Origin: Limisphaerales bacterium
Lineage (GTDB): Bacteria; Verrucomicrobiota; Verrucomicrobiia; Limisphaerales; SIBE01
Assembly: GCA_044225505.1 (NCBI GenBank)
Contig: JBGAIN010000044.1
Location: 1-48,202 of the forward strand
Reading direction: 5' to 3'
DNA length: 48,202 nt
The translations under genes were made by a program, and so were the position numbers. A model generated the notes under the pieces. That model did no database searches, was not told where the DNA came from, and saw nothing but the letters and a program-made list of their open reading frames with translations. Position 1 is the stretch's first letter, and every line of letters starts with the position of its first letter. Positions 19,205 to 43,568 of the stretch are shown here, in pieces.

Positions 19205-19281
19205 GAACAGGATGAGACCCCTATGAGAACAGGATCGTGATCCTGGTCTCATAGGGGTCTCATCCTGTTCTCATAGGGTTC
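19205..19281. repeat. Dyad-symmetric array of 11-bp units (array A)
   Basis: GAACAGGATGA/GACCCCTATGA/GAACAGGATCG | TGATCCTGGTC/TCATAGGGGTC/TCATCCTGTTC/TCATAGGGTTC. Arms 19204-19236 and 19239-19271 differ by 1 mismatch. Confidence 0.9.
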
Positions 19282-19292
19282 TGATCGAATCC

Positions 19293-19378
19293 ATCCCGCT
19301 GAAACCCCGCTCAAATCCCAGTCCTATCCCACTCGTAAAGGGGGTATCACTGGGATTGGAGCGGGCTTTCATTGGGAT
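19293..19378. repeat. Dyad-symmetric array of 11-bp units (array B)
   Basis: ATCCCGCTGAA/ACCCCGCTCAA/ATCCCAGTCCT/ATCCCACTCGT, then inverted GTAAAGGGGGT/ATCACTGGGAT/TGGAGCGGGCT/TTCATTGGGAT. Confidence 0.8.
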
Positions 19379-19686
19379 CACTGATAGAGAATGCTGCGGT
19401 TCGTCTTCGACATTACCGCGCTCCGATTCGGGAGGAGTGCTCATTTACGGACCGCGGCTTTGTGCGAAGCACCAGACGCAGGATTCGGGAATTCGTAACG
19501 TATTCATCTGCGCTCGCTTCGGTCCATAAATCCTGCCGCTGGAGACATTTTGTCACCTGCGACAGAGGCATTGGGGCCGGTCCGTTCCCAAACCGTGCGT
19601 CAATTGCCCGGTTTGTTGCACATTCCGTCCACAGATTGGGGACAAACCCGCTCGTCCCGCCGCCCTATTGCTGGTTCTTTCACCAA

Positions 19687-19763
19687 AGACGGCCTCCAGA
19701 CTGCCTGCAAACAGCTTGCTCACAGCTTCGCGACGCTGTGACCACGCTGTCAGGAAGCCGTCA
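19687..19763. repeat. Dyad-symmetric array of 11-bp units (array C)
   Basis: AGACGGCCTCC/AGACTGCCTGC/AAACAGCTTGC/TCACAGCTTCG | CGACGCTGTGA/CCACGCTGTCA/GGAAGCCGTCA. Confidence 0.7.
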
Positions 19764-19834
19764 GCCCTGAATGACCGCGCAATCAGGCAAAAGACGACCC
19801 ATCCGAAACCGGCTGCCTTTGCGGGCGTCCAATG

Positions 19835-19945
19835 CCAAAGATCCAGAAGGCTGGAGCATTTCCAAGACGCTGGCGCGCAGGGACTAGTCCACTATGCTTC
19901 GCCAGATCTTGGAGTGCGGCGGCCTTCCAGCCTACCGCCGCTTTT
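19835..19945. repeat. Inverted pair of GGAG-type REP-like hairpins (BIME-like doublet)
   Basis: TTGGAGT-GCGGCGG...CCGCCGC-TTT at ~19909-19945, facing a degenerate copy on the other strand (TTGGAAATGCTCCAGCCTTCTGGATCTTT). Inner TCCAAGACGCTGGCG / CGCCAGATCTTGGA arms pair imperfectly. Confidence 0.65.
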
Positions 19946-20176
19946 CCGGAGATCCGCCGGGATCGAACACCACCTTTACCGACCTGCGCGGTTAAGCACC
20001 CCGGGCTCTGGCACTTTGGCCCGAACGAATCAACGCTCACCGCCGGTCGAATGTCTCACACTCAGAGACAATTTGTCGGCAATGTGTGCGACATTTCATG
20101 GGGAGTATCCGGACGCGATCAAGCACCATGCGCAATGCGGGACGGAGAGTCCGAAGATGCGGCAACTGCTGCTTAC

Positions 20177-20458
20177 CTAGTGTGGTGACCGCTAAGTCCT
20201 TGCACTTTCGCGGCGAGGGTTTTTGCGCGCCCGCAAGGCGCGAGCGAGGTGCAGACCCGTGCCGACAGGTCGGGATAACGAGCGAGGAACGCGGCGGGCG
20301 CGCGAAAGAACCGCCGCCCAAAGGGTTGCGCTGAAAATGGGTCCTGGCTTCGTTGCTCCTCGGTCAGAGAGCGCGGCGGCTATCCTCCGTCGTCGCGCCT
20401 CGCCAGGACCCATTTTGAGCGCAACGAAAGTATAAGGACTTAGCGGTCACCACACTAG
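20177..20458. mobile_element. MITE (282 bp, non-autonomous)
   Basis: 34-bp terminal inverted repeats CTAGTGTGGTGACCGCTAAGTCCTT(GC/AT)ACTTTCG at 20177-20210 and 20425-20458, 2 mismatches. CTAG/TA at both ends. Internal 24-bp inverted repeat (20325-20348/20402-20425). No transposase. Confidence 0.82.
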
Positions 20459-20506
20459 CTCGCTGAATCGCCGTAGAGGCCCCATGGGGGCTGATCTCAC
20501 TCACGT

Positions 20507-22675
20507 TCAATCAAGCCCTTTTTGAAACTGGAGCTCGTAGAGTCTCCGATAAAGGCCGTCTCGCTTCAAAAGCTCGGCGTGACGTCCGGTTTCAGCGATG
20601 CCCCCGTCTTGGAGCACGACGATCAGGTCCGCACTCTGGATCGTTGATAAGCGGTGGGCGATGCAGATGGTGGTGCGATGTTGCATCAGCTCGTCGAGAG
20701 CCGCTTGGATTGCCCGTTCCGATTCCGTGTCCAAAGCGCTCGTCGCTTCGTCCAGGATGAGGATAGGTGCGTTCTTTAAAATCGCGCGAGCAATCGCCAA
20801 TCGTTGCCGCTGCCCGCCAGAGAGGGCGATGCCTCTTTCCCCAACCACGGTTTCGTACCCGTTGGGTTTATCGACGATGAAGTCATGGGCGTAAGCGTGA
20901 CCGGCCGCGGCCATGATTTCTTTCATCTCTGCACCCGGTCGGCCCAACGCGATATTCATGGCGATCGTATCATTGAAGAGCACAGTCTCCTGAGTCACGA
21001 TGGCGATCTGTCGGCGCAGATCGGCCAGTGCGACGTCGCGAATGTCAACACCGCCAATGGTGATGGCTCCAGCTTGCGGATCGTAAAAACGCAGCAGCAA
21101 ATTGGTCAGTGTCGTCTTGCCTGAACCGCTGCTGCCGACCAACGCGACCATCTGTCCCGCGCGGACCGTCAGATTGATGTTGGTTAAGGCTGCTTTCTCG
21201 CCGTAGGAGAAATTCACCTGTTTGAATTCAATATCAGCGTGTTCCGCGCGGAGCGGCTTTGGACGTGTGGCTTCCGGGATGTTGGTTTTCGTCGCTAAGA
21301 TATTGAACGCGTATTGCGTGGCGGCGTCAGCCTGCTGAAGTTGATTATGCAACCGGATCAGCGCTTTGATCGGTTGGTACATCAGGAAGATGCTGCCGAT
21401 AAATGCAATCAGTCCTCCAGGGGTCGTGCGCGAGAACAACGCGATATACGCGAAAAAGCAGGCCACCGCGACCGCGCCGAAAAACTCCATCAACGGTCCG
21501 GGGATCTCCATGGAGCGGAGGATGCGCATGTAGTGGCTGACCGCAGCCCGAGATGTTTTGTCAAACTCCTCTATGACTTTGCCTTCCAGATTATAGGCTT
21601 TGACGATACGGAAGCCGGTGAAACTCTCGTGCATCATGCGTCCCATATCGGCGTACTTTTGATAAATCGCGACCGACGACTTTCGGACCTTCCGCGCGTA
21701 AACCACAAAGGGAACGAGTGTCACGGGAAAAATGAGCAGGGCTACGACGGTGAGGCGCGGCTGTTGCCAGAGTAGGAAAGTGGTCAAACCCGCGAGCGTT
21801 ACGGGCTCTTTGATCAAGACGACCATGGCTTGGCTGATGGGTTGGTGCAGCCCGTTCACCTCCGTTAAACGACTCATCAATTCGCCGGTGCTGACTCGGT
21901 TGAAGAAGCTGGCCGAAAGATCCATCAGGTGCGTAAACAACCGAGCTCTCAAATCGGCCACCGCTCTGACCGAGACCCAGTTCATCAGATAAACGTTGAG
22001 ATACGTGAAAAGGCCCCGCAAAAGCATGGCCACGGGGATGCTCGAGATCACGAGCACGACCAGCCAGGGCGAACGGTCGGCGCTTAAGCGTTCGATGGAG
22101 GAACGCCACTGCTCGATGGTCGGTGCCAGGAATCTGGGCAATAGCCGGGTAGGTTCGGACTTGATCATCCCTGGGAAAGCCGCCTCGAGGAACTCTATAT
22201 TCAGATGAACTTGGTCTGCCCCGCGCAGCCCCCCGGGCTGCTCTACGGGTTGGGGCGCTACCCGATGAAGACCGGCAAAGGCAGGCTGCGCCGCTAGCGA
22301 CTCCTTACGAATGACGCGATTGAGCTCTTCAATGCAGGCGGTCTGCTGCTCTTGAGCGGTCGACCTCGGATCCCTGAGGACTTGCTGCGGTCCAGGCAGA
22401 AACTGATTCCAGAGGAAAGCGGCCGCGGGTGCATTGGTATCTTGAAGCGCCTGAATGAGCGCTGGCAAGTTCTGAATATCGGTTGCCGCAAGCAAGGACA
22501 AGCCCTGCAACCGTTCGACCAGTGTGGGCGCCCCGGGTTGCGGAAATACCACTTCAAACACCATCTTGATGCTCCCCATTAATAAGGGGTTGGTCAGACC
22601 GGCCATGAAACCACACAGGATCCCGAGGACCAATCGTGTGCGATACGGCTTCGTCAGCCGTAGCACCGTTCTCAT
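20507..22675 (-). CDS. msbA: MsbA-like lipid A-core flippase/ABC exporter with large periplasmic insertion
   Basis: TMD + NBD: GSSGSGKT, LSGGQRQRLAIARAILKNAPILILDEATSALDTESE, IAHRLSTI; adjacent to GT9. Start ATG 22675 (alternative 22693). Confidence 0.8.
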   Translation of the reverse strand: MRTVLRLTKPYRTRLVLGILCGFMAGLTNPLLMGSIKMVFEVVFPQPGAPTLVERLQGLSLLAATDIQNLPALIQALQDTNAPAAAFLWNQFLPGPQQVLRDPRSTAQEQQTACIEELNRVIRKESLAAQPAFAGLHRVAPQPVEQPGGLRGADQVHLNIEFLEAAFPGMIKSEPTRLLPRFLAPTIEQWRSSIERLSADRSPWLVVLVISSIPVAMLLRGLFTYLNVYLMNWVSVRAVADLRARLFTHLMDLSASFFNRVSTGELMSRLTEVNGLHQPISQAMVVLIKEPVTLAGLTTFLLWQQPRLTVVALLIFPVTLVPFVVYARKVRKSSVAIYQKYADMGRMMHESFTGFRIVKAYNLEGKVIEEFDKTSRAAVSHYMRILRSMEIPGPLMEFFGAVAVACFFAYIALFSRTTPGGLIAFIGSIFLMYQPIKALIRLHNQLQQADAATQYAFNILATKTNIPEATRPKPLRAEHADIEFKQVNFSYGEKAALTNINLTVRAGQMVALVGSSGSGKTTLTNLLLRFYDPQAGAITIGGVDIRDVALADLRRQIAIVTQETVLFNDTIAMNIALGRPGAEMKEIMAAAGHAYAHDFIVDKPNGYETVVGERGIALSGGQRQRLAIARAILKNAPILILDEATSALDTESERAIQAALDELMQHRTTICIAHRLSTIQSADLIVVLQDGGIAETGRHAELLKRDGLYRRLYELQFQKGLD

Positions 22676-22792
22676 GAACGCAACTAGACGCACAACAGGA
22701 AGTGTGAGCCAACCGCAAGTCCTGGCGAGGATTTTCCTGAGACATCAGCGGGCGGCGCTCGACGGAGCGTTCTACGCCGCGCACTCCCGACC

Positions 22793-23875
22793 TCAACGCT
22801 GCCCAGTCACCAGGTTGGGACAGAGCACCGCGATTTCCCGCCAGACCGCATCCGCTGAGACTTGATCCAAACAGACCGGTGTTCCCGTGGCCTGACAGGG
22901 TTGAACCCGTTGGTTAACGCATTGGCACGAGGCGACGATGGAGCGGTGGTCTTCGCCTTTCGGCATCCATTCGCCGATGCCCTCGTAATCTCGGAAGATC
23001 GAGACGGTCTTGACGCCGAGGACTGCGGCCAGATGCAGAGCGCCCGAATCCGCTCCAATATGCAACTGACAACGCCCAAGGAGCGCGGCTAGTTGCGCGA
23101 GACTAAGACTGCCGGCAAATGGCAACACGCGTGGGTTGCGCACGACTTCGAAGAAGCGCTCCAAGCGGGCCTGTTCGCGCGGTTGGCGGCTGCCTGAAAC
23201 GACCAGCGAGGGAAGGTTCGGACATTGTAACAGATGTTGGGTAAGTTCAATCCAGCGTTCGAGTGGCCATTCTTTGAGTCCATGGCCTGCATTGATGGAG
23301 AGATGGATCGCTCCTGGCGGAACAGACTGTTCCGCCCAGCGGAGGGCGACCCCGGGTAACTGAATAGGATAACGTAGGCGCCCAAGTTGCAAGCCACACG
23401 CCGCCAGGACTTGCCGACGCTGTTCAGCGACATGCACCGTTCGGTCCACTCGAGGGATCCAATAGGGAATAAGCCAGGGATTGTAGAAATGGCGCCGGCC
23501 TCCGGCAAAGGCGACGCGCCAACGCGCCCCCGAGGCGAACGTCAAAAAGACGGTTCGATCCGTCCCGCTGAAATTAAAAGCAACGTCAAAGTGCTCGTTC
23601 CGCACCTGGCGGATCCAGCGCCATTGTTCGCGCCAGGAAGCGCCTTGGGGGGTGCGTTGCAGAGGCCAGGTTCGATCCACGGGAGTAGCCATCTGGAGAA
23701 ACTCGCTCCCAATGGATGCCGAAGCGACGTGAAGTTCGGCGCGGGGATAGTTGTCCTCAATTTCGCATAAGGCTGGCAGTAAATGGATAGAATCGCCAAG
23801 GTATCCAAGGTCAACGACAATTATTTTGCGCGCGTTGCGGGTCTCATTGTAAAAGTTTGCCAGCTCGAACGGCAT
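22793..23875 (-). CDS. GT9 family (heptosyltransferase-like) glycosyltransferase
   Basis: LGYLGD, KEWP, SLAQLAALL, IGADSGALHLAA. Confidence 0.9.
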   Translation of the reverse strand: MPFELANFYNETRNARKIIVVDLGYLGDSIHLLPALCEIEDNYPRAELHVASASIGSEFLQMATPVDRTWPLQRTPQGASWREQWRWIRQVRNEHFDVAFNFSGTDRTVFLTFASGARWRVAFAGGRRHFYNPWLIPYWIPRVDRTVHVAEQRRQVLAACGLQLGRLRYPIQLPGVALRWAEQSVPPGAIHLSINAGHGLKEWPLERWIELTQHLLQCPNLPSLVVSGSRQPREQARLERFFEVVRNPRVLPFAGSLSLAQLAALLGRCQLHIGADSGALHLAAVLGVKTVSIFRDYEGIGEWMPKGEDHRSIVASCQCVNQRVQPCQATGTPVCLDQVSADAVWREIAVLCPNLVTGQR

Positions 23876-23910
23876 GAACGCCTGTTAGCACGAAGCCCGT
23901 CCGTCCGACC

Positions 23911-24687
23911 ATGAAAAAGTTACCAATTTCGGTTTGCATGATCTCAGGTGCGGAGGCGCACCGGATCGAGCGGGCCTTGCAGAGCGTTGCAGACTGGACG
24001 GCCGAGATCGTGATTGTGCTCAATGCGGACGTCCAGGACGAGACCGAGGCGATTGCCAAGCGCTACGGTGCGATCGTGGCCCGAGAAACGTGGAAAGGCT
24101 TTGTTGGACAAAAAAACTCCGCGGCCGATCGAGCAGCGCAGCCATGGATTCTGGGGCTTGACGCGGATGAAGTCGTCCCCTTGGCTTTACAAGAGGAAAT
24201 TGCTCGGACTGTCACCAGCTCGGCTCAGCCGCAAACGCACGGAGCCTTTAGCTTTCCACGCTGCACCTACTATTGCGGCCGCTGGATTCGGCACGGAGAC
24301 TGGTACCCAGACCGGGTGACTCGGCTCTGGCGCAAGTCGGCCGCCCGCTGGGCGGGTATCGAACCGCATGCCTATTTGGACGTCCAGGGAGTTACCGGGC
24401 GCTTACACAGCGACCTGCACCATTTTAGCAATGAAAGCATCGACCGGCAGATTGCCAAGATCGCGCCCTATAGCGATTCCTTTGTGCAGCACTGTTTACA
24501 GCATCAGCGCAACGCCGGGGTGCTCGACTTAGCCATTCGACCGTGGTGGCGGTTCCTGCGCGCCTACATCTTTAAGCGCGGGTTTCTCGACGGCTGGCCC
24601 GGCTACTATATCGCGTGGTTGAGTGCCTTCTCTACGGTTACCCGCTATGCGAAAGTGCGCGAGGTCCATCTCGCTTCTCGATCATGA
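23911..24687 (+). CDS. GT2 glycosyltransferase (WaaE/KdtX-like LPS core)
   Basis: W.GF..QKN.A, WILGLDADE, GDWYPD...RL, F.R.YI.K.GFLDG..G. Confidence 0.88.
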   Translation: MKKLPISVCMISGAEAHRIERALQSVADWTAEIVIVLNADVQDETEAIAKRYGAIVARETWKGFVGQKNSAADRAAQPWILGLDADEVVPLALQEEIARTVTSSAQPQTHGAFSFPRCTYYCGRWIRHGDWYPDRVTRLWRKSAARWAGIEPHAYLDVQGVTGRLHSDLHHFSNESIDRQIAKIAPYSDSFVQHCLQHQRNAGVLDLAIRPWWRFLRAYIFKRGFLDGWPGYYIAWLSAFSTVTRYAKVREVHLASRS

Positions 24688-25487
24688 GCTCGACGGTCAA
24701 CGTGGCGCTCATCGTCAATACCTACAATCAGCCGGAGTATCTCGCGCGGGTATTGGAAAGCGTTGCTCGGCAAACCCGACTGCCGAGCGAGGTCATTGTC
24801 GCGGACGATGGGTCGACCGACGAAACGCGTCAGGTCTTTGCACGACATGGAAACTCGCACCCTTTCCGCGCCTCCCACATCTGGCAAGCAAAGCAGGGAT
24901 TCCGCCGCTCGCGCATTTTGAATCGAAGCATTGCGGCCGCCTCGGCCAATTACCTTGTCTTCCTCGACGGCGATTCGATTCCACACCCGCGGTTTGTGGA
25001 AGATCACGAGCGCTTGGCTGCGAACGGGGCTTTTGTGCAGGGCCACCGCGCCTTGATCGAGCAACGCGCGGCGACCTACTTTGGGTTGGGCAATTTTGGC
25101 AAGGATCGGTGGCGGGCTTTAGTCCAGGGGCAGCTCCGCGGTTGGAAGCACGCCTACCGTTGGCCGAAACCGCTTTGTCGAAACCGAACGGATTTGCGAG
25201 GGGTTCGGGGGTGTAACCTCGCGATATGGCGGGACGACTTGGTGCGTGTCAACGGATATAACGAAGCGTTCGTTGGGTGGGGACGCGAGGATTCCGAGTT
25301 GAGCTTACGATTGATGAACAGCGGAGTCCGACGGATCGACGTGCGCGGCTGGGCCATTTGCTATCACCTATGGCATCCACCCGTGGCCCGCGATGGATTG
25401 GCGACCAACGATCGTCTCCTCAGCGACGCGATCGCGGCTTCTGCCAAGACCTGCGATTTGGGATTGTCCCAATACCTGACCTCTTAG
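24684..25487 (+). CDS. GT2 glycosyltransferase with GT7C-like C-terminus
   Basis: TYNQP, VADDGS, GFRRS..LN, FLDGD, GCNLA, VNGYNE.F.GWGRED, HLWH. ATGA overlap with the upstream gene. Confidence 0.9.
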   Translation: MSSTVNVALIVNTYNQPEYLARVLESVARQTRLPSEVIVADDGSTDETRQVFARHGNSHPFRASHIWQAKQGFRRSRILNRSIAAASANYLVFLDGDSIPHPRFVEDHERLAANGAFVQGHRALIEQRAATYFGLGNFGKDRWRALVQGQLRGWKHAYRWPKPLCRNRTDLRGVRGCNLAIWRDDLVRVNGYNEAFVGWGREDSELSLRLMNSGVRRIDVRGWAICYHLWHPPVARDGLATNDRLLSDAIAASAKTCDLGLSQYLTS

Positions 25488-26055
25488 GCCGGAACCGTTC
25501 AGGCGCGCGAATGCTTAGGCGATACAATCGTGAAGTTTCATTCGTGGTAACGTCACGAACGGTCCCAAGCCGGTTGGTTGCGAACGGAACCGGATGATTC
25601 GCCCAAGTTTTTAACGGGTTCCACGTTACGGGCGGATTGAGGCTATCCGTAAACTGAACTTCGTAAATCCGATTGGCGATCTGCGGGAATGAGACTTCGG
25701 CAAAACCTGCACCAACGCTAATCGCTGGATTGAAGGGCGGTTGCGGATCCAGCGGGCTGCTTCGCAGCAGGTACTCACAGCGATTGGCAGCGCCGTCATT
25801 GTCCGGGTCTGCGTCCGGTTGAGCCTCAGGTGCACGTCGTGCGCCGGGCGGAGTCGCGATGGCAACCGGCTTCTCAAACGTCACGCCGGGGAACGCTTCG
25901 GTAAGCTGAGATCGAACCTGGTTGACATCGAGATCCTTGGGCAACCGCAAGGATGTGGTGGCGACACGTTGGAGCGTCGCCTTCGGTAAAACTGCGTCTG
26001 CGTGACACTGCAACGTCACAATTCCGAGCGCGATCACTGGAAAGATCACCCTCAT
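25420..26055 (-). pseudogene. Internally deleted remnant of a secreted PQQ/glucose-sorbosone dehydrogenase-like protein with C-terminal DxDxDG and sorting-type domain
   Basis: Signal peptide + RVATTSLRLP...AFPGVTFEKPVAIATPPG (start of a GSDH propeller) joined directly to DADPDNDG..N..EY...P.D and a YEVQ...W...LYRL terminal domain. Expected stop is out of frame (CC-TGA at 25499-25503). Confidence 0.55.
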
Positions 26056-26303
26056 TCTACCGCCTGGATTGTGGAAACGCTCTACAGATCCGCCTTTCTG
26101 AAGCGTCTGTCCCTACCTAGAAATGCTCTCGAGAGCGGATCGACCTTGGATTGGCATGTCGTGTACAACTCGGCTGAATTGTACAGAACGCACCGCGGCA
26201 CGGATTGAATATCGGGGTGGGCATCAATGAAGCCCCGGGGATCTCTGACGCTGCTCGGGAGCGCCAGGTTGGTTGTGATGGCTTTCGCCGTGCGCGCTTG
26301 CGG

Positions 26304-28004
26304 CTAATGTGGGCGATCTATCATCGCTCCGGAACGGAGCACATAATATGGTATCAAGTGTCTCTGGGTAACCGCCACTCGTTGGTTCGAGTCAAGCCAT
26401 TCCATGAAGTCACGCGCCCGCCATCGGCTGCTGGCATAGGCCGTTGGATCAAGTTTCTCGGGGAAGTGGGGCACAAGCGCTCGCTCCGTGCCGGCAAAAA
26501 CCAGCGGTGTCGTGCCGGCCAAGAGCGGAGTCTGCGCGTCGGCAGCCAGGGGAACCACCGTCAGTCTTCCCTCCGACAAGACGCGTATTTGCGCTTGGTA
26601 AGACGGGGACATGTTCAACGCGTAGACGCGCGTCCGTGTTCCTGGGTCCAAGTCGAGAGTTGCGACCAGCGCAGGGGCAGGAGATTGAGAAAACACCGGA
26701 CGCCAAAAAAACTCCACGCACCAGAAACATGCCAGTGGGAGCAACGCCAAGGCCAGCGTTAAGGCCCAATAAGCTTTCCGGCGCAGGATCATTCCTGCAG
26801 TCCCGCTTGCTGCAATCAAGAGCAGACCGCCAGCCGCCAGCCGCCCATGCGCAATGGCGCCAGCGACAAGCAGAAGCAGGCCTGCCAGACCGAGCACCAT
26901 CGCGGCGCTGGCGATAATCTTGATCGTCCAATCCCGGAATCGATCGACGGCTTCGTAACGCGCGAGCATGAGCGCCAGAAGAATAGAAAGAAACGGGTAA
27001 GCGACACTCATGTAGCGCGTCCGATGAGAGTCGCCAAAGATGAATGGCGTGACGATGAACAGGAACCAGCCCAGGAGAAACCAGCATTTCGAGCGATGTT
27101 CGTTCCAGGCGGCCGCACCCGTCCGGCGGTCAATCCAGAGCCCAAGTAGCAGCAAGGCTGACCAGGGCAAGAAGTGACGCAGCACTCCTGTCCCGTAAGC
27201 CCAAAGATTGCTCAGACTGTCGAGGAAGACATACGTCCGAATGTTTTCCGTGACTTGATCATAATAGAAACCGTCGATCAGGGCTTGGCCATGGAGCCAA
27301 AGCATGGCACCGAACCATGCTCCCGCGACGATCAATCCGAGGACCAGGGCTTTCCATTCGATCAAGTCTCGCAATCGTGTTTGGCGCCGGCGAAAGATCA
27401 GGCAGTAAACGAATGGGTACACCGCCACGCCGAGTCCAGGCAGGCCGCGCGTTTCCACCGCGAGCGCCGCTCCAATGTAAGCCAGGCCGTAGTCTCGCCA
27501 GGAAGGTTGGTCCGAGAAAATTAATTGCGCAAAACCCACAAGGCTCAGCAGCACAAACAGGCATAACAGAGCGTCGGGCGTCGAACGGAGTGAAATGGTC
27601 AAAAGCTGGACGTTGGAACCCATGATCAAAGCGGCTAGAGCCGCTTCTTTGGGACGTCCGAACAGCTTTAAGCAAAGTCGATAGGTCAGCGCGATCACTG
27701 AACAACCCGCGAGCATAAACACGATGCGCGAGCCCAGGAAGCTGACACCGAAGACGCTATATCCCGCCAGCACGGCCCAATACGGCAAAATCGGTTTCGC
27801 AAAGCGAAGCGCTCCGTTGGCGGCATACGGGGTGAGGTAGTCGCCGGTCTGGCTCATCCGAATCGCGGCGTCGGTATAGAAGCATTCATCCCCATGATAC
27901 TTCGCAATGCCCGGAAGCAAGCAGAGCAAGCTCAACGAAACGGCCAGCAGCAACCCACGAACCTGCCAGCGAGGATCTTCTAGAAATGGAAGTTTCAAGC
28001 CCAT
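26304..28004 (-). CDS. ArnT/GT39-like (PMT family) membrane glycosyltransferase
   Basis: DE.FY..AA..M...GDYLTP..NG..RF.KP.L.YW, SR, TPD, ~13 TMs. Start ATG 28004. Confidence 0.88.
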   Translation of the reverse strand: MGLKLPFLEDPRWQVRGLLLAVSLSLLCLLPGIAKYHGDECFYTDAAIRMSQTGDYLTPYAANGALRFAKPILPYWAVLAGYSVFGVSFLGSRIVFMLAGCSVIALTYRLCLKLFGRPKEAALAALIMGSNVQLLTISLRSTPDALLCLFVLLSLVGFAQLIFSDQPSWRDYGLAYIGAALAVETRGLPGLGVAVYPFVYCLIFRRRQTRLRDLIEWKALVLGLIVAGAWFGAMLWLHGQALIDGFYYDQVTENIRTYVFLDSLSNLWAYGTGVLRHFLPWSALLLLGLWIDRRTGAAAWNEHRSKCWFLLGWFLFIVTPFIFGDSHRTRYMSVAYPFLSILLALMLARYEAVDRFRDWTIKIIASAAMVLGLAGLLLLVAGAIAHGRLAAGGLLLIAASGTAGMILRRKAYWALTLALALLPLACFWCVEFFWRPVFSQSPAPALVATLDLDPGTRTRVYALNMSPSYQAQIRVLSEGRLTVVPLAADAQTPLLAGTTPLVFAGTERALVPHFPEKLDPTAYASSRWRARDFMEWLDSNQRVAVTQRHLIPYYVLRSGAMIDRPH

Positions 28005-28042
28005 GCTCAGGGACGCGCGACCGCGTCTCAAATGCGAGGTTG

Positions 28043-28915: not shown

Positions 28916-28938
28916 GCGTTATCGGAGGGAGAGCATGC

Positions 28939-30970: not shown

Positions 30971-30982
30971 TTTACAGCGAAT

Positions 30983-34779: not shown

Positions 34780-34843
34780 TGCCCGCGCAGCGGCCTTGGA
34801 CTCGATCCCGCGCGGCAATCAGTCCGGGTTTCTCGGTCAAGCT

Positions 34844-36136
34844 TCAGACCTCGGCGTCCGCTCGGTAAAGCGTCTTCCTGGCGCTGCTGTACTTGAGCAG
34901 GCCCGCGTAGCGGCCCCAGGCCACCAGCGTTTGCAGAACGCGATGCGGCCGCTCATGAGGATAGAGCAACGTGATCTGACTGAGGAGGACTTCCTCTTCC
35001 AGTTCGTGGGTCTCGGACTGGTCGAGCATTCGGATAACCAGTCCGAAGAGCTGGACTTGCCGCAACTTGGCGTGCAGCAGTTCTTTTCGTGTATGAATGG
35101 CTGCAGCCGCGAAGCGTCTGCCCTCTCCAGTCAACTGGACGAGTTGTCCGGGGGTTTCGACCCAGCCGATCAACTCCGCGGCCTTCACGACCAAAAGCAT
35201 GTCCGTGAACTGTCGATCGATGTCTTGGGCTAATCGGAACAAATCCATGCGTCCACCCTTGCTCTCGATAATCTCCAAGAGACCCATGACCGATCCGATC
35301 GAGACGGGGGGTAGCGCCGGAATCGGGCCGGTCTGGTATGGAGCCAAGGCTGCTGGGGCCTGATCAGGCATGACGGCCTGAGTGATGACGGCATGGATTT
35401 CGTGGTTGAGCCGCTGGAATTTAGGGTCGTGTTCGTCGCGCGGGTAGGGCAGTGGGTTATCAATCACGGCGCGGAGCGTGGCTGGTTGCGGTCCCAGCAC
35501 CACGATGCGTGTGGCCATAAAGACCGCTTCACTGATGCTGTGGGTCACAATCAAGACGCTGTTTACCGGAGATTCTTTGCTTGTATATAGGTCGGTCACT
35601 TCGTTTCGGAGTGTCTCCGCCGTTAAGACGTCCAGCGCGCTGAAAGGCTCGTCCATGCACAAGAGTTCGGGTTCAACGACGAGGGCGCGGGCAATCCCAA
35701 CCCGTTGTTTCATGCCACCGGAAAGCTCTCGCGGATAGGCGTTCTCGAACCCGCCCAGACCAACCGCTCCTAAGGTTCGCCGAACGCGTGTGGCCCGTTG
35801 TTCGGCGGTGATGGGCAGGTTCGTTAGCCCCAGGGCAATGTTCTGTTCCACCGTCAGCCAGGGCAGGAGCGCAAAGTTCTGGAAGACCAGCGCTGCGGCA
35901 GGGTTGAGACCGGCCACGGTCTGCCCGCGAAAGCGAACCTCTCCGAGCGAGGGCGAGAGCAGCCCGATCAAGACTCGGAGGAGAGTGGACTTGCCGGATC
36001 CGGAAGGCCCGAGGATGGCCACGACCTCATTCTCGCGGATCTGTAGGTTGATATCATGGAGGATCTCCATGGTCCGCCCGTCGGCCAAGGCGAACGATTG
36101 GAAGATGTTCTTAGCTTCGAGCAGCAGCGTGGCCAT
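34844..36136 (-). CDS. NitT/TauT-type ABC ATP-binding protein with C-terminal AAA-associated domain
   Basis: [45 protein letters not shown]-terminal extension ending WGRYA.L..Y. Confidence 0.9.
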
Positions 36137-36139
36137 GGC

Positions 36140-37870
36140 TCAATTGCTCCCCAGAGTGTAATGCGATTCCGCGTGTCGGATGAGCGGCGCCCAGATCATT
36201 CGATTAAAACCGACCACAATGAATGCCATGACCCCCACAGCGGCCGCCAGCACATGGAATCGTCCCTGATCAGTGGCGTGGCTGATCAACGCTCCGAGCC
36301 CCACGGTGCTCAGCGTCTTTCCTTGGTATTTCATATACTCCGCCACGATACTGGCATTCCAAGCTCCTCCCATCGCTGTGATCCACCCGGTCAGCAACGA
36401 AGGAAAAAGCGCTGGCAAGATGAGCGTTCGCCAGCATTGCCACCGGGTCAGCCGATGGAGCCGGGTGACCTCCCAAAAATCACTGGGGATCGCGCTGGTT
36501 CCCGCCACGGCATTGAAGAGAATATACCACTGTGTGCCCAGTAGCAGGAGCAGAATGGAACCCATTCCCAGCCCGCCGCCGAGCGCCATCACGCCCGTGA
36601 TCACGAGCGGGAAGATCATCGGTGCCGGAAAGCTCGCTACGACCTGGATAATTGGTTGCAGGAGCCTGGCCCAACGCCGGTTCCGGCCGATGAACACCCC
36701 CGCTGGAATGGCCCATAGCGACGCAAGCACGACCGCGGCGAGAACCCGGCTAAGGGTAAGCGCGGCACTCACCGCGATCTCGCGCCAATCAGCGGCGGTC
36801 AGATCGTGCAGTAACCGTGTATACTTAATGACTCCGAAGCCGACTCCAATCCAAAGCAGTGCCACGCTGACTTGCCTCAGCCTTTTGCCTGAGGAACATC
36901 GAACGAGGAACCCTTCTGACCTCCGCTTCAAAGGCGCTGGAGGTGATCGACGCACGAGCGCGGCGCGGCTCCGCTGGAGGGTTGCGGCCACGGCCGCCCA
37001 GACCCGGGAACGCCGGACCAGTTGCCACCAGAGCGGAGTCGAGGCGGTGGACGCTTCGGCGTCAGGGCTGAAGCGCTGAGACCAGCTAACCAACGGCCGC
37101 CAAACGAGCTGATCCAGGATCAGGATGAGCACGATCATGCTTAAAACACCCAAACACTGCGCGGACACAGACCCTTTTTCGATGGCGAGGCTGACATAGG
37201 AACCTAGCCCCGGCAGCCGGAAGTCATGCTGGCCCAAGACAAACGCTTCCGTCACCGTGAGAAAGAACCAACCTCCGGCCATGGAGACCATGCTGTTCCA
37301 AACGAGCGAAGTTGCGGAGAACGCGAGTTCCAGGCGGAGGAACCGCTGCCACCACGTCAATTTCGCCAGGCGCGTCACAACTTCGAGATCGGTCGGGATC
37401 GCTTTGAGGGAGGCGTAAAATGCGAACGTCATATTCCAGACCTGCCCAGTGAAGATCATGAGCACGGAGGCGATTTCCAGACCGATGTTCTGGTGCGGAA
37501 AGAGGTGGACGAGGGCGAGAACGAAGCCGGGAAGGAACCCGAGCACGGGAATGCTCTGTAGAATATCTAAGACCGGCAGGAGGATACGATCCGCGCCACG
37601 GACCCGGGCGGCCACATAGCCGTAGGCCATGGTGAAGGCAAACGAGAGGCCGTACGCTAGGACTCCTCGAGTTAGACTGTAGAGCAGATAAAGCGGCAGG
37701 TATTGGGCTTCCAACCGAATATCGGGAGTGGGGTTCAAGGTCCCGGTCCATTCACGGGCGACCCTAATAATCCCATAAATAACCGCGCTGAGCGCCGCCA
37801 TGACCGTAAGATCGATCCATACGGCGCGCTGCGGTAGGTCTGAAAAATCCGGTTTGGCCAGCACGCTCAT
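36140..37870 (-). CDS. NitT/TauT-type ABC permease with duplicated TM module
   Basis: LDILQSIPVLGF, WNSMVSMAGGWFFL, LPGLGSY; second module QWYILFN, TG.ITA.GGAWNASIVAE. Confidence 0.9.
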   Translation of the reverse strand: MSVLAKPDFSDLPQRAVWIDLTVMAALSAVIYGIIRVAREWTGTLNPTPDIRLEAQYLPLYLLYSLTRGVLAYGLSFAFTMAYGYVAARVRGADRILLPVLDILQSIPVLGFLPGFVLALVHLFPHQNIGLEIASVLMIFTGQVWNMTFAFYASLKAIPTDLEVVTRLAKLTWWQRFLRLELAFSATSLVWNSMVSMAGGWFFLTVTEAFVLGQHDFRLPGLGSYVSLAIEKGSVSAQCLGVLSMIVLILILDQLVWRPLVSWSQRFSPDAEASTASTPLWWQLVRRSRVWAAVAATLQRSRAALVRRSPPAPLKRRSEGFLVRCSSGKRLRQVSVALLWIGVGFGVIKYTRLLHDLTAADWREIAVSAALTLSRVLAAVVLASLWAIPAGVFIGRNRRWARLLQPIIQVVASFPAPMIFPLVITGVMALGGGLGMGSILLLLLGTQWYILFNAVAGTSAIPSDFWEVTRLHRLTRWQCWRTLILPALFPSLLTGWITAMGGAWNASIVAEYMKYQGKTLSTVGLGALISHATDQGRFHVLAAAVGVMAFIVVGFNRMIWAPLIRHAESHYTLGSN

Positions 37871-37973
37871 CTTCTAAAGCTCCGCAATTGGCAGTTGCCT
37901 ACGCTAATTGGGCAACGCGCGCCAGGGAATTCCAGCGTTTGCTAACCCCCCTTTTCCCCGCTAATCTTTTTTT

Positions 37974-39161
37974 ATGCAGAACGAGTTCTCGGTGGTTAGT
38001 CATTGGCCTGGAAGCTTTGATGAGCTGGGTTTGCAGAAGTGGGCGGAAAAGGTTCGCGCCCAGTTAGAGGCACGCCGAGTCTCGTTGGGCCTGGTGTTTA
38101 TGGGGCCTCAGTTCTTTCCGTATGCGCCGCAAGTGCTCGAATTATTGCGAGTCCACGCGCAGATCCCGTTGCTGGTGGGCTGTTCGAGTGGAGCCCTGAT
38201 TGCGGGCAGTGAGGAAGTCGAGGATGACCCAGGCTTGGTGCTGGGCTTGTATGCATTCCCGGGCGCCGATCTGCATGCCTGCCGCATCTCACCGGCGCAG
38301 GTGGAGGAAAGCAATGGCCCGGGCTATTGGCATGCCGAAACGGGCGTCGGTCCCGATTCCGTGAACGGCTGGTTGGTGTTTGCCGACCCATTCAACATGG
38401 ATGCGGATGCCTGGCTCAAAGGCTGGAATGAAGCTTACCCCCGCCTCCCGATCCTGGGCGGTTTGGCCAGCGGCGATTCCAACGAGCAACGGACTCAAGT
38501 TTACCTCAACGGCGAGGTCAGTGATTCGGGCGGAGTCGCGATTGCCTTCCGCGGGGATGTGAAGATCGCCAGCGTCATCTCCCAAGGCTGCACACCGATT
38601 GGGGAGACCTGGACCATCACCAAGGCCGAACAAAACATTATTCACCAGATTGGCAATCGACCTGCCTACCAGGTCTTGCTCGAGACATTCAACCAGCTTT
38701 CGGCCGACGATCAGACCAAGACCCGCGGCAATCTGTTTATCGGGTTGGTTGTTAACGAGTATCTGGAGGAGTTCCACCGAGGTGACTTCCTGATCCGCAA
38801 CCTACTCGGCGCGGATCCGAAGTCTGGTTGCATCGCGGTGGGGGCATTGCCGCGCGCCGGACAGACGCTTCAGTTTCAGAGGCGGGACGCCCATGCCGCC
38901 ACGGAGGACATGACCGCGCTGTTGGATCGGACGCGAGAGCAGCTCGCCAGCAAGCCAATCTATGGGGGATGTTTATGCAGCTGCAACGGACGTGGGCATC
39001 GCCTGTTCGGCTACCGCAACCACGATGCTGCCATGGTCCAAGCGCGGTTCGGACCGCTCGGTCTCACGGGCTTTTTCTGCAACGGCGAGATCGGGCCAGT
39101 CGGCGAGAAGAATTTCCTTCATGGGTACACAGCCTCCCTGGCACTCTTCCTCAAACCATGA
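37974..39161 (+). CDS. FIST domain protein (NosP-like)
   Basis: GCSSG..I....EVE, ADPF, GGLASG, SQGC.PIG, SCNGRG, GFFCNGEIGP...FLHGYT. Confidence 0.9.
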   Translation: MQNEFSVVSHWPGSFDELGLQKWAEKVRAQLEARRVSLGLVFMGPQFFPYAPQVLELLRVHAQIPLLVGCSSGALIAGSEEVEDDPGLVLGLYAFPGADLHACRISPAQVEESNGPGYWHAETGVGPDSVNGWLVFADPFNMDADAWLKGWNEAYPRLPILGGLASGDSNEQRTQVYLNGEVSDSGGVAIAFRGDVKIASVISQGCTPIGETWTITKAEQNIIHQIGNRPAYQVLLETFNQLSADDQTKTRGNLFIGLVVNEYLEEFHRGDFLIRNLLGADPKSGCIAVGALPRAGQTLQFQRRDAHAATEDMTALLDRTREQLASKPIYGGCLCSCNGRGHRLFGYRNHDAAMVQARFGPLGLTGFFCNGEIGPVGEKNFLHGYTASLALFLKP

Positions 39162-39841
39162 GTCCGACTGACTTTATTCACTCCCCGAGTGCGCCGCTGG
39201 CCAGTCTGCCGGGAAATGTTCCATCTAGCTCCGCCCCTCCTGCCCCCCGACCAGAGCCCAGCTTGCTAATTCAGCCGGCCTCCTACTTCGAGGTCCTTGA
39301 CCTGAGTGCGCTCTTTCCCGCGCCGCAGCCGTTGGAAGTGGAACTCGGCAGCGGCGACGGCTCGTTTATCGTGCAGTACGCCAAGGCGCACCCGGACATG
39401 AATTTCCTCGGCGTCGAGCGCTTGCTTGGTCGGTTGCGTAAGATCGACCGGAAAGGACGCCGGCTTGGCCTGGTCAACCTGCGGGCCTTACGTGTGGAAG
39501 CGGGCTATTTCCTGGAATTCATGTTGCCCCCTCAGTCGGTCCGAGCGTTGCATATCTACTTTCCAGATCCGTGGCCGAAGCGGAAGCATCGTAAGAACCG
39601 GCTGATTAACGCACGCTTCACGGAATTGGCGTTACGCGTCTTGAACTCAGCGGGAATTGTCCATTTGCGCACCGACGACTCGGATTATTTCGGCCAGATG
39701 ACCGCCGTTTTTCGCGACAGCCCTGCCTTTCGCGAAGTGCAGCCCCCAGCCGAGTTGTCCGCAGTGGTGACGGACTTTGAGCGTGAGTTTCACGCTCGTG
39801 GAGTGCCAACGCTGAGCGCCTCATACCAACGGACGAGCTAA
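39158..39841 (+). CDS. trmB: tRNA (guanine-N7)-methyltransferase
   Basis: ELGSGDG, NFLGVE, FPDPWPKRKHRKNRL, RTD, TDFE. ATGA overlap with the FIST gene. Confidence 0.92.
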   Translation: MSPTDFIHSPSAPLASLPGNVPSSSAPPAPRPEPSLLIQPASYFEVLDLSALFPAPQPLEVELGSGDGSFIVQYAKAHPDMNFLGVERLLGRLRKIDRKGRRLGLVNLRALRVEAGYFLEFMLPPQSVRALHIYFPDPWPKRKHRKNRLINARFTELALRVLNSAGIVHLRTDDSDYFGQMTAVFRDSPAFREVQPPAELSAVVTDFEREFHARGVPTLSASYQRTS

Positions 39842-40137
39842 GCCTTGCCTTGAGTCAGTCCTGGAGGGACGCGGCGGAACTAGCCGGTCGCTCTCGCGTT
39901 GGGGGTAACTCGGATCCGAACTGCCGTCCGTCCTGGGCGGGCAGACAGCGAACAACGAGCGGCAGGAGACAATTTGTCACCGGAATCCCGTTGACCGCTA
40001 AAACACGCCTAACGCGTAGCGCGGCTCAGGCGAAATTGCCGCAAATGAGGAAGCGCACGTGCAGGATCAGGAGCATGAAAGCCCTCGAAGCGTGAGGTGA
40101 TTCCCACGATTGCGGCGCGAGAGACTATCCCGGAGCG

Positions 40138-40515
40138 CTAACTTTCGGAAGAGGGGCTCTCCCCTGCTCTGACGGTTAGTTCTACCAGCGTGATCCCAGG
40201 GTTCGCTCGGTTTAGGTCCCGGTCGCGACGCAGCCACGGATACCGGGCGAGCAAACCACGCGCCTCGAGCGCATCGGAAGAGAAACGTTCCCCGGGAACG
40301 ACCACGGTTGCTCGGCCTTCTTTGACCCGGAGTCGGAGAGACTTGCGAATACCTACACAGAGCGTGCCGCCTTCACCGCTCGAGCCGTATCCGTGAATGA
40401 CTTTGAGAACCCGAACTCCAGCTTGTCGGGCTGCTTCAAGATCTGCCAGCAAACGACGTCGGGCTTCCTCCAGAGAGGGAGAACCGCGTTCTAAGTTCAA
40501 CGTGCGCAGGCCCAT
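40138..40515 (-). CDS. Stand-alone Smr/MutS2 C-terminal domain protein
   Basis: LNLE.G.P.LEEA, VLKVIHGYGSSG.GG.L, N.GIT.V.L. Confidence 0.85.
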   Translation of the reverse strand: MGLRTLNLERGSPSLEEARRRLLADLEAARQAGVRVLKVIHGYGSSGEGGTLCVGIRKSLRLRVKEGRATVVVPGERFSSDALEARGLLARYPWLRRDRDLNRANPGITLVELTVRAGESPSSES

Positions 40516-40539
40516 CGTTCCGAAGGCACCTTTGCCAGT

Positions 40540-40974
40540 TCAAACGTCAATGACCGGGCCGCTTCCGCCAGGCGGCGGAGGGCGCGGATTTCGACCCCGC
40601 CGGATTTGAACCTTGGCTTCGCCCGTCCCGAGGATCAGGTTCGCCCCCATCGACACTATGCTGATGACCAGAGCTCCCCAGAAAGCTGCGCCGAAGCTGG
40701 CGACATGAAACGACTTGAGCAGTGAGCCAACGAAATAGAGAAGCAGCGCGTTGATTACGAGGATGAACAGCCCCAACGTCACCAGTAACAGGGGAAGTGC
40801 TAAAACAATCAGAATGGGTCTTAGGACAGCATTCAGCACTCCCAATAGCAGCGAAGCGAGAAATAAGCCGAGCGCCGTGTCGTAATCAATTCCAGGCACG
40901 ACATTGGACGCGATCAGAACGCCCAGCGTGGTGACCACCCATCGTTGCAGGAAAGCTTTGGTTTTAACGGACAT
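40540..40974 (-). CDS. 4-TMS 'phage holin family' (YvlD-like) membrane protein
   Basis: LG.LNA.LRP.L..L.LP....TLGLF.LVINA...F..AFWGAL..S. Confidence 0.85.
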   Translation of the reverse strand: MSVKTKAFLQRWVVTTLGVLIASNVVPGIDYDTALGLFLASLLLGVLNAVLRPILIVLALPLLLVTLGLFILVINALLLYFVGSLLKSFHVASFGAAFWGALVISIVSMGANLILGTGEAKVQIRRGRNPRPPPPGGSGPVIDV

Positions 40975-41032
40975 TCGTTCGGCTCCGGACGGCTCCTGGC
41001 GACTCAACCCCTGCTCCACCCCTCGCGCCGCC

Positions 41033-42010
41033 TCACCGAGGCCAGATCGCCAGCCATTCTGCGCTGGTCATGGCCTGCAATGCAACTCCGCTCAAGCAAG
41101 CTGGAATCAGGCAGAACCGTCCCGGCGTGAGCGTCACCGACCCGGAGGTGTGCCCGACGCGCAACTCGCCTCGGAGCATCCCTAGAATGCAGGGACCTGG
41201 CTCGCACAGTTCGGACCTGTGCCCAGCCTCCAACCGCCTCGCGTCCACTTGAAAAAGCGGATCATTGACCAACGGTCGGACGGCCCCGGAAGGCCCTTCG
41301 CGATACTCGCTGGCTATCAAACTCGGCTCGAAATCGGTGAAGTCAATCGATTCCAGCGAATCCGCCACGTGCAGTTGGCGCGGCTTGCCATCGGGTCCAA
41401 TCCGGTTCCAATCGAATACTCGGTAAGTGGTATCCGAGTTCTGCTGGATTTCGAAGATCGTGCAGCCCGCCCCGATCGCGTGGACTCGCCCGCTCGGAAC
41501 AAACATCGCATCCCCTGCGCGCACTGGAACTCGGTGGAAGCACTCTGCCACCGCCGCTGTGCGCAACTTCTCCTCAAACTCCTGGCGCGTCACACCGCGG
41601 CGTAACCCAACATACAGTTCTGCGCCCGGGTCCGCATCGGCCAGATACCACATCTCGGTCTTCGGATCTCCTCGCAATCGGTGCGCGACCGACTGTGGCG
41701 GGTGCACTTGCAACGAGAGTTTTTCCCGCGCGTCCAGGATCTTGATCAGAAGTGGAAACCGTCCGCCCACCGGGGCCACCGATCCAAGCAACTCCTGGCG
41801 GTGATCACGCAAGAGGGCCTCGAGTGTTTGGCCCGCGAGTGGGCCTTGATCGACGACGCTGACATCACCCGGTCGATCACTAATCTCCCAGGACTCCCCC
41901 ATCGGCAGCTGTGGGGGTAACGTCTTTTGATAAAGCCGCTCCAACGTCCGGCCTCCCCAAAGGCGTTCCTTGAAGATCGGGTGGAAGGTCAGCGGATAGA
42001 GCTTGGTCAC
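41033..42010 (-). CDS. manA: Type I mannose-6-phosphate isomerase
   Basis: WGG, GESWEIS, FPLLIKILDA...LSLQVHP, KTEMWY, G.VHAIG, EIQQNSDTTYR.FD, R.LH. Confidence 0.92.
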   Translation of the reverse strand: MTKLYPLTFHPIFKERLWGGRTLERLYQKTLPPQLPMGESWEISDRPGDVSVVDQGPLAGQTLEALLRDHRQELLGSVAPVGGRFPLLIKILDAREKLSLQVHPPQSVAHRLRGDPKTEMWYLADADPGAELYVGLRRGVTRQEFEEKLRTAAVAECFHRVPVRAGDAMFVPSGRVHAIGAGCTIFEIQQNSDTTYRVFDWNRIGPDGKPRQLHVADSLESIDFTDFEPSLIASEYREGPSGAVRPLVNDPLFQVDARRLEAGHRSELCEPGPCILGMLRGELRVGHTSGSVTLTPGRFCLIPACLSGVALQAMTSAEWLAIWPR

Positions 42011-43020
42011 GGCTCGCTCTCCAAGGTGGGTTGCGCTTGCGTTTGGGTTTTCAGTTCCTGCTTTTCCGCCACTCGACCGTAGGCGCGAAACTTGGCGTAA
42101 CGCGCTGCTAACCGCTCTGGAACCGGCATCGCGCGAACGGATTCCAGATGCTGCAAGAGGCTTTCTTTGAGGGCGGAGGCGGTCGCGGCGGGGTCATTGT
42201 GGGCGCCACCCAGGGGTTCCGGTATAATTTGATCCACGAGATTAAGGTCGAGGAGATCTTTGGCGGTGATTTTCAAGGCTACGGCTGCTTTGCTCGCCGC
42301 CGATCGATCTTTCCAAAGAATGGCCGCACAACCCTCCGGACTGATCACCGAGTAATAGGCGTTTTCCAGAATCAACACGCGGTCGGCCACGCCGATGCCC
42401 AAGGCCCCTCCCGATCCACCCTCGCCAATCACAATCGCAATGATGGGCACTTCCATGAGCATCATCTCGCGAAGGTTTACCGCGATCGCCTCGGCAATGT
42501 GACGTTCCTCAGCTCCGATCCCTGGGTAAGCACCGGCCGTGTCGATCAACGTCACGATCGGCAACCCGAATCGATCCGCGAGTTTCATTAGCCGCAATGC
42601 TTTTCGATAGCCTTCCGGGTGCGCCGATCCGAAGTTACGACGGATGTTTTCTTTGGTATCGCGGCCTTTTTGCGTGCCAATCACCATCACTTTCTGTCCG
42701 TCCAAATGGGCAAAACCACCCACCATCGCGTGGTCGTCTGAAAACAACCGGTCTCCGTGCAACTCAGAGAAATCGGTGAAAACCATCTGAATATAATCAA
42801 GCGTGAACGGGCGTTTCGGGTGGCGAGCCAGTTGAACGCGCTGCCAAGGCGTCAAATCGGAAAAGATGCGGCGCCGCTCCTCTTCGATCTTGGTCTCGAT
42901 TTGCTCAATTTCCACGCTTAGATTAATTCCCAACGAATGGGTTTCCCGGTGCCGACGCAAATCATCTAACTTGCGCTGCAACTCGAGAATCGGTTTTTCG
43001 AAGTCGAGGTAATGTTTCAT
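42007..43020 (-). CDS. accA: Acetyl-CoA carboxylase carboxyltransferase alpha
   Basis: LDFEKPI, ARHP.RP, ELHGDR, PEGYRKA.RLM, IDTAGAYPG, GEGGSGGAL, YSVISPEGCAAILW. Confidence 0.97.
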   Translation of the reverse strand: MKHYLDFEKPILELQRKLDDLRRHRETHSLGINLSVEIEQIETKIEEERRRIFSDLTPWQRVQLARHPKRPFTLDYIQMVFTDFSELHGDRLFSDDHAMVGGFAHLDGQKVMVIGTQKGRDTKENIRRNFGSAHPEGYRKALRLMKLADRFGLPIVTLIDTAGAYPGIGAEERHIAEAIAVNLREMMLMEVPIIAIVIGEGGSGGALGIGVADRVLILENAYYSVISPEGCAAILWKDRSAASKAAVALKITAKDLLDLNLVDQIIPEPLGGAHNDPAATASALKESLLQHLESVRAMPVPERLAARYAKFRAYGRVAEKQELKTQTQAQPTLESEP

Positions 43021-43184
43021 GGTTCAGGCAAACCTTCCGTCGCAGACAGTAGACCAGTCTAGGTTTGCGGAGAGCGATGCGCAATTGAGAATTCACGTTG
43101 TCAATCAGTGACTTACGCATCAAATCGGTCACTTGGCGACGTGGCGGGTCGTTGCCCCGGAGCTTTATCGCTCTCTCAGCGCGC

Positions 43185-43295
43185 AAAAAAAGAGCCAGCT
43201 TTCACTGGCTCCGGTGATGAGGCCTTTAACGCCCTCACCCAGGCGCTCAGAAGAGTAATAAGGCCAACTGTCTACCCGCTGTCCGAGCCTCATTA
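43185..43295 (-). ncRNA. Candidate small RNA ending in an Acido-Lenti-1-like double hairpin/terminator
   Basis: Minus strand: UAAUGAGGC...GCCUUAUUA stem, then GGUGAGGGC-GUUAAA-GGCCUCAUCACC, then GAGCCAG-UGAAAG-CUGGCUC + U7. Resemblance to Acido-Lenti-1 is from memory of the motif. Confidence 0.5.
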
Positions 43296-43481
43296 CAAGC
43301 AAGACCTCTGTGCCAACCCTTAGCGGACAGCGAAATGGCATTAACAGTAATTGGATTCCTGGATTGCCGGATTGTTCAATATGCGCCCACGCGAATGAGA
43401 GAAAAGTGGCGTTGAGCAGGAACGTGCGGTCGATCCGGCGTCGGACCAGCCTGCCGGACCGATCGTTGTTCACTCGTTTAA

Positions 43482-43568
43482 AACAGGGAATGTACACGTA
43501 GATAAAACGGATTTAACACGGAATGCATCCGAGTGATATCCGTGTTATATCCCTGTAATCTCCCTGTT
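43482..43568. repeat. Dyad-symmetric array of 11-bp units (array D)
   Basis: AACAGGGAATG/TACACGTAGAT/AAAACGGATTT/AACACGGAATG, then GCATCCGAGTG/ATATCCGTGTT/ATATCCCTGTA/ATCTCCCTGTT. Confidence 0.8.

Follow-up and report, generated by a model that had tools for sequence, protein, structure and literature searches.

Dyad arrays of helically phased 11-bp units in a Limisphaerales genome pair with paralogues of an uncharacterised protein family

The 48,202-nucleotide contig JBGAIN010000044.1 of a Limisphaerales bacterium (assembly GCA_044225505.1; the whole contig is hereafter called the window) carries four short intergenic arrays in which degenerate 11-bp units converge from both sides on a centre, and the question raised by this locus is what reads, and what disperses, repeats of this kind. 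Examination of the window together with the rest of its own genome (G000, a 9.04-Mb assembly of 57% GC in which the window is contig C106), a sister genome (G002) and further relatives showed that the array units fall into families, that most of these families pair with paralogues of a single uncharacterised protein, that the pairing co-varies across species, and that the array sites turn over between species. Named homologues of the window's proteins belong to Verrucomicrobiia and Opitutus, which makes a verrucomicrobial host probable. Among the options of the original prediction, that of platforms for a polymerising protein family of diversified specificity is supported by these results, a candidate family now pairing one-to-one with unit families; judging from sequence, binding of protein to the arrays as such is highly probable.

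All four arrays were found where they had been reported. In segments of 91-101 nt, self-identity is 0.49-0.57 at a lag of 11 and 0.42-0.61 at a lag of 22, and reaches at most 0.36 at the remaining lags between 5 and 24; complementarity across the dyad amounts to 33/38 positions in array A, 33/48 in B, 25/40 in C and 35/50 in D. A, B and C lie between oxidoreductase and ABC transporter genes, and D occupies the spacer between a ychF-like gene and accA. The units are contiguous, with no unique spacers between repeats, which agrees with the earlier exclusion of CRISPR, and the window yielded no match to any Rfam family and none in a tRNA/tmRNA search. The length originally given, 77-87 bp, proved too short: in families A, D and E, the four family units of each arm are followed by an outer, TCATTCG-like fifth unit with a CG at -50 from the centre, and in-phase CG continues at -61 and -72 and, in D, also at -83. 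The features are as follows.

19183..19292, no strand assigned: family A dyad array, units GAACCCTATGA / GAACAGGATGA, centre 19237/19238; cognate gene at a distance (G000:C220:16080).
19281..19390, no strand assigned: family B dyad array, AATCCCAGTCA type, centre 19335/19336; cognate gene G000:C43:2279.
19532..19662, no strand assigned: module P, distinct from the arrays: a dispersed repeat (51 BLAST hits) that contains hairpins and has no 11-bp periodicity.
19676..19785, no strand assigned: family C dyad array, TCACAGCTTGC type, centre 19730/19731; cognate gene not found in the assembly.
43470..43580, no strand assigned: family D dyad array, TAACACGGATA type, centre 43525; cognate gene G000:C63:49598.

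A genome-wide scan for period 11 combined with a central dyad returned 182 matches, against 5 in one local trinucleotide shuffle, whereas control periods of 5-10 and 12-16 gave 0-25 matches against 0-10 in shuffled sequence. Clustering of 179 of these matches (3 at contig ends were left out) placed 169 arrays in ten families: D (47), E (31), F (29), A (15), C (13), B (9), G (7), H (7), J (6) and I (5). The proposal that the arrays share architecture but not sequence thus holds within the window and fails for the genome, where each window unit heads a family of 9-47 copies. For family A, a profile scan raised the 15 dyad copies to 23 loci. In families G and H, a few members are simple tandem repeats with no dyad, and a further family, L, consists of one-armed dispersed arrays (14 loci vs 2 in shuffled sequence by profile scan). 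A, B, module P and C recur together as a mosaic on contigs C63, C132, C149 and C251, with partial sets at other places; the 98-bp separation of A and B in the window is the same at C251, and module P immediately precedes a C array at 12 loci.

When the open reading frames near arrays were clustered, a cluster of seven members was found to abut arrays of six families. These encode an uncharacterised protein of ~190 amino acids with 16 matches in G000, of which 13 are full length, 2 are cut by contig ends and 1 is a fragment. An array lies upstream of 12 of the 14 paralogues with an intact 5' end, one unit family for each (D, E, I twice, F, B, J, A, H, K, L and G), at 100-320 bp from every full-length basic paralogue; for paralogue G, a single unit is known before the assembly gap. 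The two paralogues with no array are the acidic ones (pI 5.6-5.8, vs 7.7-10.0 for the others). Cognate genes are accordingly available in G000 for the window families A, B and D. An acidic, array-less paralogue is conserved downstream of another paralogue in three genomes (L002:768-1331, L006:834-1397, L017, L028), and could be a capper or antagonist of filaments. The family I gene and its array are duplicated (L014 and L012, on G000 contigs C128 and C53) at ~86% nucleotide identity; given the 4.7% contamination of the assembly, one copy could be foreign.

The protein was modelled with a pLDDT of 94 and a pTM of 0.80 as two domains: an N-domain (residues 1-93), predicted to comprise a three-strand sheet and three helices, and a C-domain (residues 94-191) that forms an Ig/FN3-like sandwich (Z about 10). 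In the N-domain, ten positions are at least 50% Lys or Arg among 148 homologues. The family is large, with 4222 clusters at 50% identity (E up to 0.001), and patchy, being present in 6 of 40 relatives and in 3 of 300 sampled genomes of the phylum. None of the 148 members matched Pfam above the cut-off, HTH families included; there were no sequence matches in PDB, NCBIfam or PHROGs (best E 0.016), no fold match among viral structure models, and no match in phages and plasmids with one acidic paralogue as the query. The N-domain of 2 of the 148 members weakly resembles DUF6266 (PF19781), at E 0.0035 or worse, with an atlas score of 0.84, which is to be taken as a lead only: no G000 paralogue reaches the Pfam cut-off for this family, one of the searches being weak and the control genomes negative as well, and no paper naming DUF6266 was found in the literature searched.

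Between species, protein and unit change together. For seven pairs of orthologous or sister proteins taken from the tree and involving two congeners, the upstream DNA was scored against the ten family profiles, and the best-scoring profile was that of the matching family in 6 of 7 pairs, 4 of them unambiguously (D, E, J and G, at 35-53 bits). The D orthologue in G002 has a base-shifted unit upstream, and this shifted unit gives 141 strand matches in G002 vs 2 in G000; at position 8, 358 of 376 G000 units have G, and 211 of 320 G002 units have T. Exact patterns of the G000-style D and E units match G000 alone among 41 genomes, but in view of the base-shifted D family in G002, exact patterns under-count, and the lack of such matches elsewhere does not amount to absence. 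Another relative, G001, has its own A-type unit at 9 places.

More distant homologues show what is probably the ancestral arrangement. Among metagenome homologues, 70 of 80 loci had enough upstream DNA; the best upstream period is 11 in 44 of these 70, and 36 of 70 carry strong arrays, vs 0 of 350 shuffles. All 36 are direct, and none has a second arm. For 6 of 7 homologues from a distant family within this class, 11 is the best upstream period, stand-alone N-domains included. The N-domain alone occurs as proteins of 98-101 amino acids (L054, L055, L057, L058) that still have 11-bp arrays upstream, which indicates that the Ig-like domain is dispensable for the pairing; five stand-alone N-domains in genome G026 show at most a weak 11-bp signal. 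The direct, one-armed arrays before distant homologues suggest that the basal state was a direct array just upstream of the gene, as would fit an autoregulatory operator by analogy with parC/ParR and Apl.

The explanation that we favour, with moderate confidence, is that self-repressing paralogues coat their own phased units, and that the dyads are copied by a host or helper enzyme and stay near consensus as long as they are bound. Each basic paralogue would polymerise on its own unit family with one subunit per 11-bp unit, its basal role being autorepression by a head-to-tail filament on the direct array. In this lineage, the direct array would have become a dyad on which two filaments meet at the centre, spreading weakly outwards across the phased CG. 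The protein coat may hold the copies to a near-consensus sequence and render the coated segment fit to be copied, such that gene-less copies spread through the genome by array-anchored copying. Because the protein shows no catalytic motif, we infer that cutting and joining are supplied by a host or helper enzyme. A bolder reading, less likely than not, sees the arrays as a new class of selfish DNA: one small protein of new fold would cover a phased palindrome and promote its duplication, and a dozen orthogonal protein-repeat codes would coexist in one genome, each re-seeding the chromosome once its code drifts.

Comparison of sites between species bears directly on dispersal. Of 40 D sites taken from those listed for G002, 39 have a nearby homologous gene in G000; a D array is present at the corresponding G000 place for only 3 of the 39. 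Among fully syntenic D sites, 1 of 4 has an array in both species (C322 / L224, with a species-specific unit). The window D array is absent from the same spacer of G002, an empty site of the kind that had been proposed as a check. A family of G002's own, M, has 163 strand matches there, whereas G000, G001, G003 and G007 have none; its number of units per arm varies, and mean identity is 84%. M sites mapped to G000 had both flanks syntenic in 2 of 43 cases, neither with an array. In this family, 21 of 85 arms share the proximal flank with another arm, and in one group of 8, the gene-side leader is shared to differing lengths, with three arms extending past the start codon (181, 104 and 94 identical bases). 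Some young copies thus carry uneven pieces of the 5' end of the gene, which implies that a cassette of array plus gene can give rise to dispersed arrays through ragged copying. At the window's own locus, array B is missing from contigs of two runs: in a contig of run X13 that includes unique flank, window position 19284 is joined to 19416 through 21 other letters, which take the place of 19285-19415; run X6 shows the same joint, and a contig of run X14 retains B. No joint was found in the reads of the D region, and within G000 the search for empty paralogous sites turned up mosaics and duplications and no clean empty site. Expansions confined to one lineage, the turnover of sites and the truncation of gene-linked copies support the suggestion of a dispersed non-autonomous repeat class.

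The same comparison weighs on the strongest rival, under which the host has domesticated the proteins as regulators or chromosome organisers, and selection maintains the dispersed arrays as sites that govern access to promoters or DNA bending. The D arrays do prefer divergent spacers (24 of 46, vs 30% of spacer length by crude gene calls; p=0.0013), old D copies (68% mean identity) retain periodic invariant positions, one fully syntenic site has kept its array in both species, and several paralogues have kept orthologues throughout the genus. However, 36 of the 39 G002 D sites have no G000 counterpart, the E arrays show no positional bias (8 of 29, p=0.67), the genes next to arrays have no function in common, most orthologous genes of the family lie in different neighbourhoods, and the family was found only in the few genomes counted above. 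A host regulon or nucleoid architecture is therefore, in our estimate, unlikely.

A second alternative makes the protein itself the mobilising enzyme, a small transposase-like new fold that coats the dyad, nicks at or near it, with Tyr72 as the nucleophile, and copies it with ragged ends. It would account for each repeat family having a gene of its own, an arrangement known from RAYT/REP pairs, and for the isolated position of these genes, whose neighbourhoods change and whose 29 scanned neighbours include no partner in common (three loci touch contig ends). Tyr72 is, together with Gly15, invariant in the 148 homologues, and the array ends are ragged: no target duplication of 3-8 bp and no sharp ends were detected in D, E, A, B or M, and the 2-bp signal in this test is the internal CG. 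Yet the family has no conserved His and no nuclease, recombinase or other catalytic motif, Tyr72 lies within a predicted helix, where its role may be structural, the C-domain amounts to no more than an Ig-like sandwich, and in G007, a direct-array unit is found at its gene only. We consider this possibility distinctly improbable. MITEs, the small transposable elements bounded by inverted repeats, were rejected as a class on the tests for sharp terminal inverted repeats and target-site duplication, both of which were negative.

Could the arrays act instead as structures, that is, as DNA cruciforms or RNA hairpins in which the 11-bp period is that of the A-form helix and shape is what is read? 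The dyads are long (74-84% complementarity), the period is strictly 11, and ANTAR RNA-binding domains head the weak list of folds resembling the N-domain (Z 4.2-4.6, rmsd 4.7-5.8). The arms, however, do not covary. Complementarity between arms of the same copy is no higher than between arms of different copies (0.647 vs 0.663 in D, 0.604 vs 0.669 in E, 0.63 vs 0.64 in A), compensatory changes are not in excess, shared deviations do not rise above expectation, and there is no enrichment of wobble pairs (0.161 vs 0.164; 0.178 vs 0.195), so that what selection maintains is the sequence and phase of the units rather than pairing between arms. The absence of second arms in the distant homologues and the one-armed dispersal of family L point the same way. 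A structural role is thus very improbable, and the cruciform option of the original prediction is not supported; a structured non-coding RNA was likewise rejected, there being no compensatory base changes between arms and no Rfam match. In the 94 D arms, CG occurs in phase in 73, 37, 25 and 20 at -50, -61, -72 and -83, respectively, compared with ~6-9 off phase, and falls to background at -94, leaving no fixed array end. Such phased CG fading outwards, with arms that do not covary and no target duplication, would be better fitted by a protein filament than by a hairpin. The least credible alternative, an unusual class of repetitive extragenic palindromes (REPs, or REPINs) moved by the Y1 (RAYT-like) transposases of this genome with the neighbouring protein as a passenger, can draw on nine Y1_Tnp matches, on mosaics with other palindromic modules and on the lack of target duplication, but an array lies within 1.5 kb of only 1 of the 9 Y1 genes, the family consensuses have no terminal GTAG or CGTC tag, and the units co-vary with the other protein.

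Several known systems offer partial parallels. The parC site of plasmid R1 consists of two direct sets of five 11-bp repeats around a promoter, one site per plasmid, and is bound cooperatively by the small protein ParR, which autoregulates its own gene and has the ATPase ParM as a partner (PMC2241845). Helically phased repeats of ~11 bp upstream of a small cognate gene are common to both systems; unlike parC, the arrays described here are dyads, with dozens of chromosomal sites and 10 or more specificities. No partition NTPase of the ParA, ParM or TubZ families was found among the 29 neighbouring open reading frames scanned, three loci touching contig ends. ParR has a ribbon-helix-helix fold, from which the fold predicted here appears to differ, the modelled N-domain having no match at Z of at least 5.

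Closer to the proposed mode of binding are Apl of phage 186, a winged helix-turn-helix (wHTH) protein that forms a head-to-tail polymer and spreads with no sharp boundary (PMC7498355), and BldC of Streptomyces, another head-to-tail polymerising wHTH protein (PMC5859096). They share with the present system direct repeats one helical turn apart and operators near their own gene, and they combine weak single-site specificity, strong cooperativity and boundary-less spreading, which the fading phased CG would fit. In contrast to these proteins, the family has no HTH Pfam match, and wHTH is not among the structural matches, which does not exclude a wHTH; it has an added Ig-like domain and mobile, gene-less operators, and no integrase or att site was seen beside its genes.

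REPs are hairpins of 20-40 bp with a terminal GTAG or CGTC tag and an HUH Y1 transposase, RAYT (PMC3733652). The arrays resemble REP/REPIN-RAYT systems as dispersed, species-specific intergenic palindromes with one cognate gene beside a repeat and no target duplication, and differ from them as untagged, phased arrays of ~110 bp with no pairing constraint and with fading ends, whose partner protein has no Y1_Tnp match, HUH motif or conserved His. A link to four-helix-bundle or GxxExxY cassettes was discarded, as no such gene cluster lies near the arrays and nothing relevant was found in the literature searched. No description of the system was found in that literature, most subscription papers and supplements lying outside the search; the system resembles parC/ParR and Apl/BldC in its layout and REP/RAYT in its dispersal, but lacks defining features of REP/RAYT, of MITEs and of parC.

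A number of observations weigh against our favoured explanation. A cognate gene was not found for family C in G000, nor an intact gene for family M in G002, both assemblies being fragmented. The N-domain has no structural relative at Z of at least 5 among 48,161 chains (best Z 4.6). The cross-species scores of A and B (13.9 and 13.1) do not exceed the range of off-target scores (13.5, 17.9 and 20.0), the B pair is weakly supported on the tree (90/59), and the I orthologue has no upstream array. Upstream signals are below threshold in 34 of the 70 metagenome loci, and only 2 of 10 full-length homologues from Bacteroidota have a strong 11-bp array. In the older families of G000, dispersed and gene-linked copies do not share a flank (D 0/48, E 0/31, F 0/30, A 0/22, J 0/6, H 0/12, L 0/13), so that the truncation series comes from G002 alone, a metagenome assembly. 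The two contigs that lack B have low depths (2.7 and 8.2), and an exchange among composite copies may account for them. Finally, the preference of D for divergent spacers would not be predicted by a purely selfish model.

Other features accompany the arrays. The hairpins of module P have conserved stems; this module is mostly array-free and also occurs upstream of a family I gene. At 20177-20458, the window contains a MITE-like element of 282 bp whose terminal inverted repeats measure 39 nt; it exists in more than 20 copies, of which the closest are 94-98% identical, and often adjoins arrays or module P. Two more dispersed modules, at 19825-19952 and 20044-20117 (up to 32 and 10 loci, respectively), belong to the same intergenic mosaic; the former looks REP-like. 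Approximately 125 bp downstream of the D array, upstream of accA, a non-coding block (43185-43345, minus strand) ends in two hairpins and a U-run; it is strongly conserved in G002, where the remainder of the spacer is not, has no Rfam match up to E 1, and is a candidate leader or small RNA. The open reading frame at 43675-44598 (minus strand) matches only the C-terminal YchF domain and not the GTPase domain in Pfam, with a similar gene at the same place in G002. Near a paralogue cluster in G002 (L065:115, G002:C53), there is a period-9 dyad array of another type.

Through this pairing, a large protein family that has gone unstudied gains candidate DNA targets legible in the genome itself, one 11-mer per paralogue. 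It thereby offers many natural protein-site pairs from which the recognition code of a fold that lacks any solved relative could be deduced, as well as a possible set of orthogonal DNA-coating modules. It also outlines a route by which a gene's own operator would become a dispersed repeat and be replaced genome-wide when specificity drifts, which bears on the origin and maintenance of bacterial intergenic repeat families.

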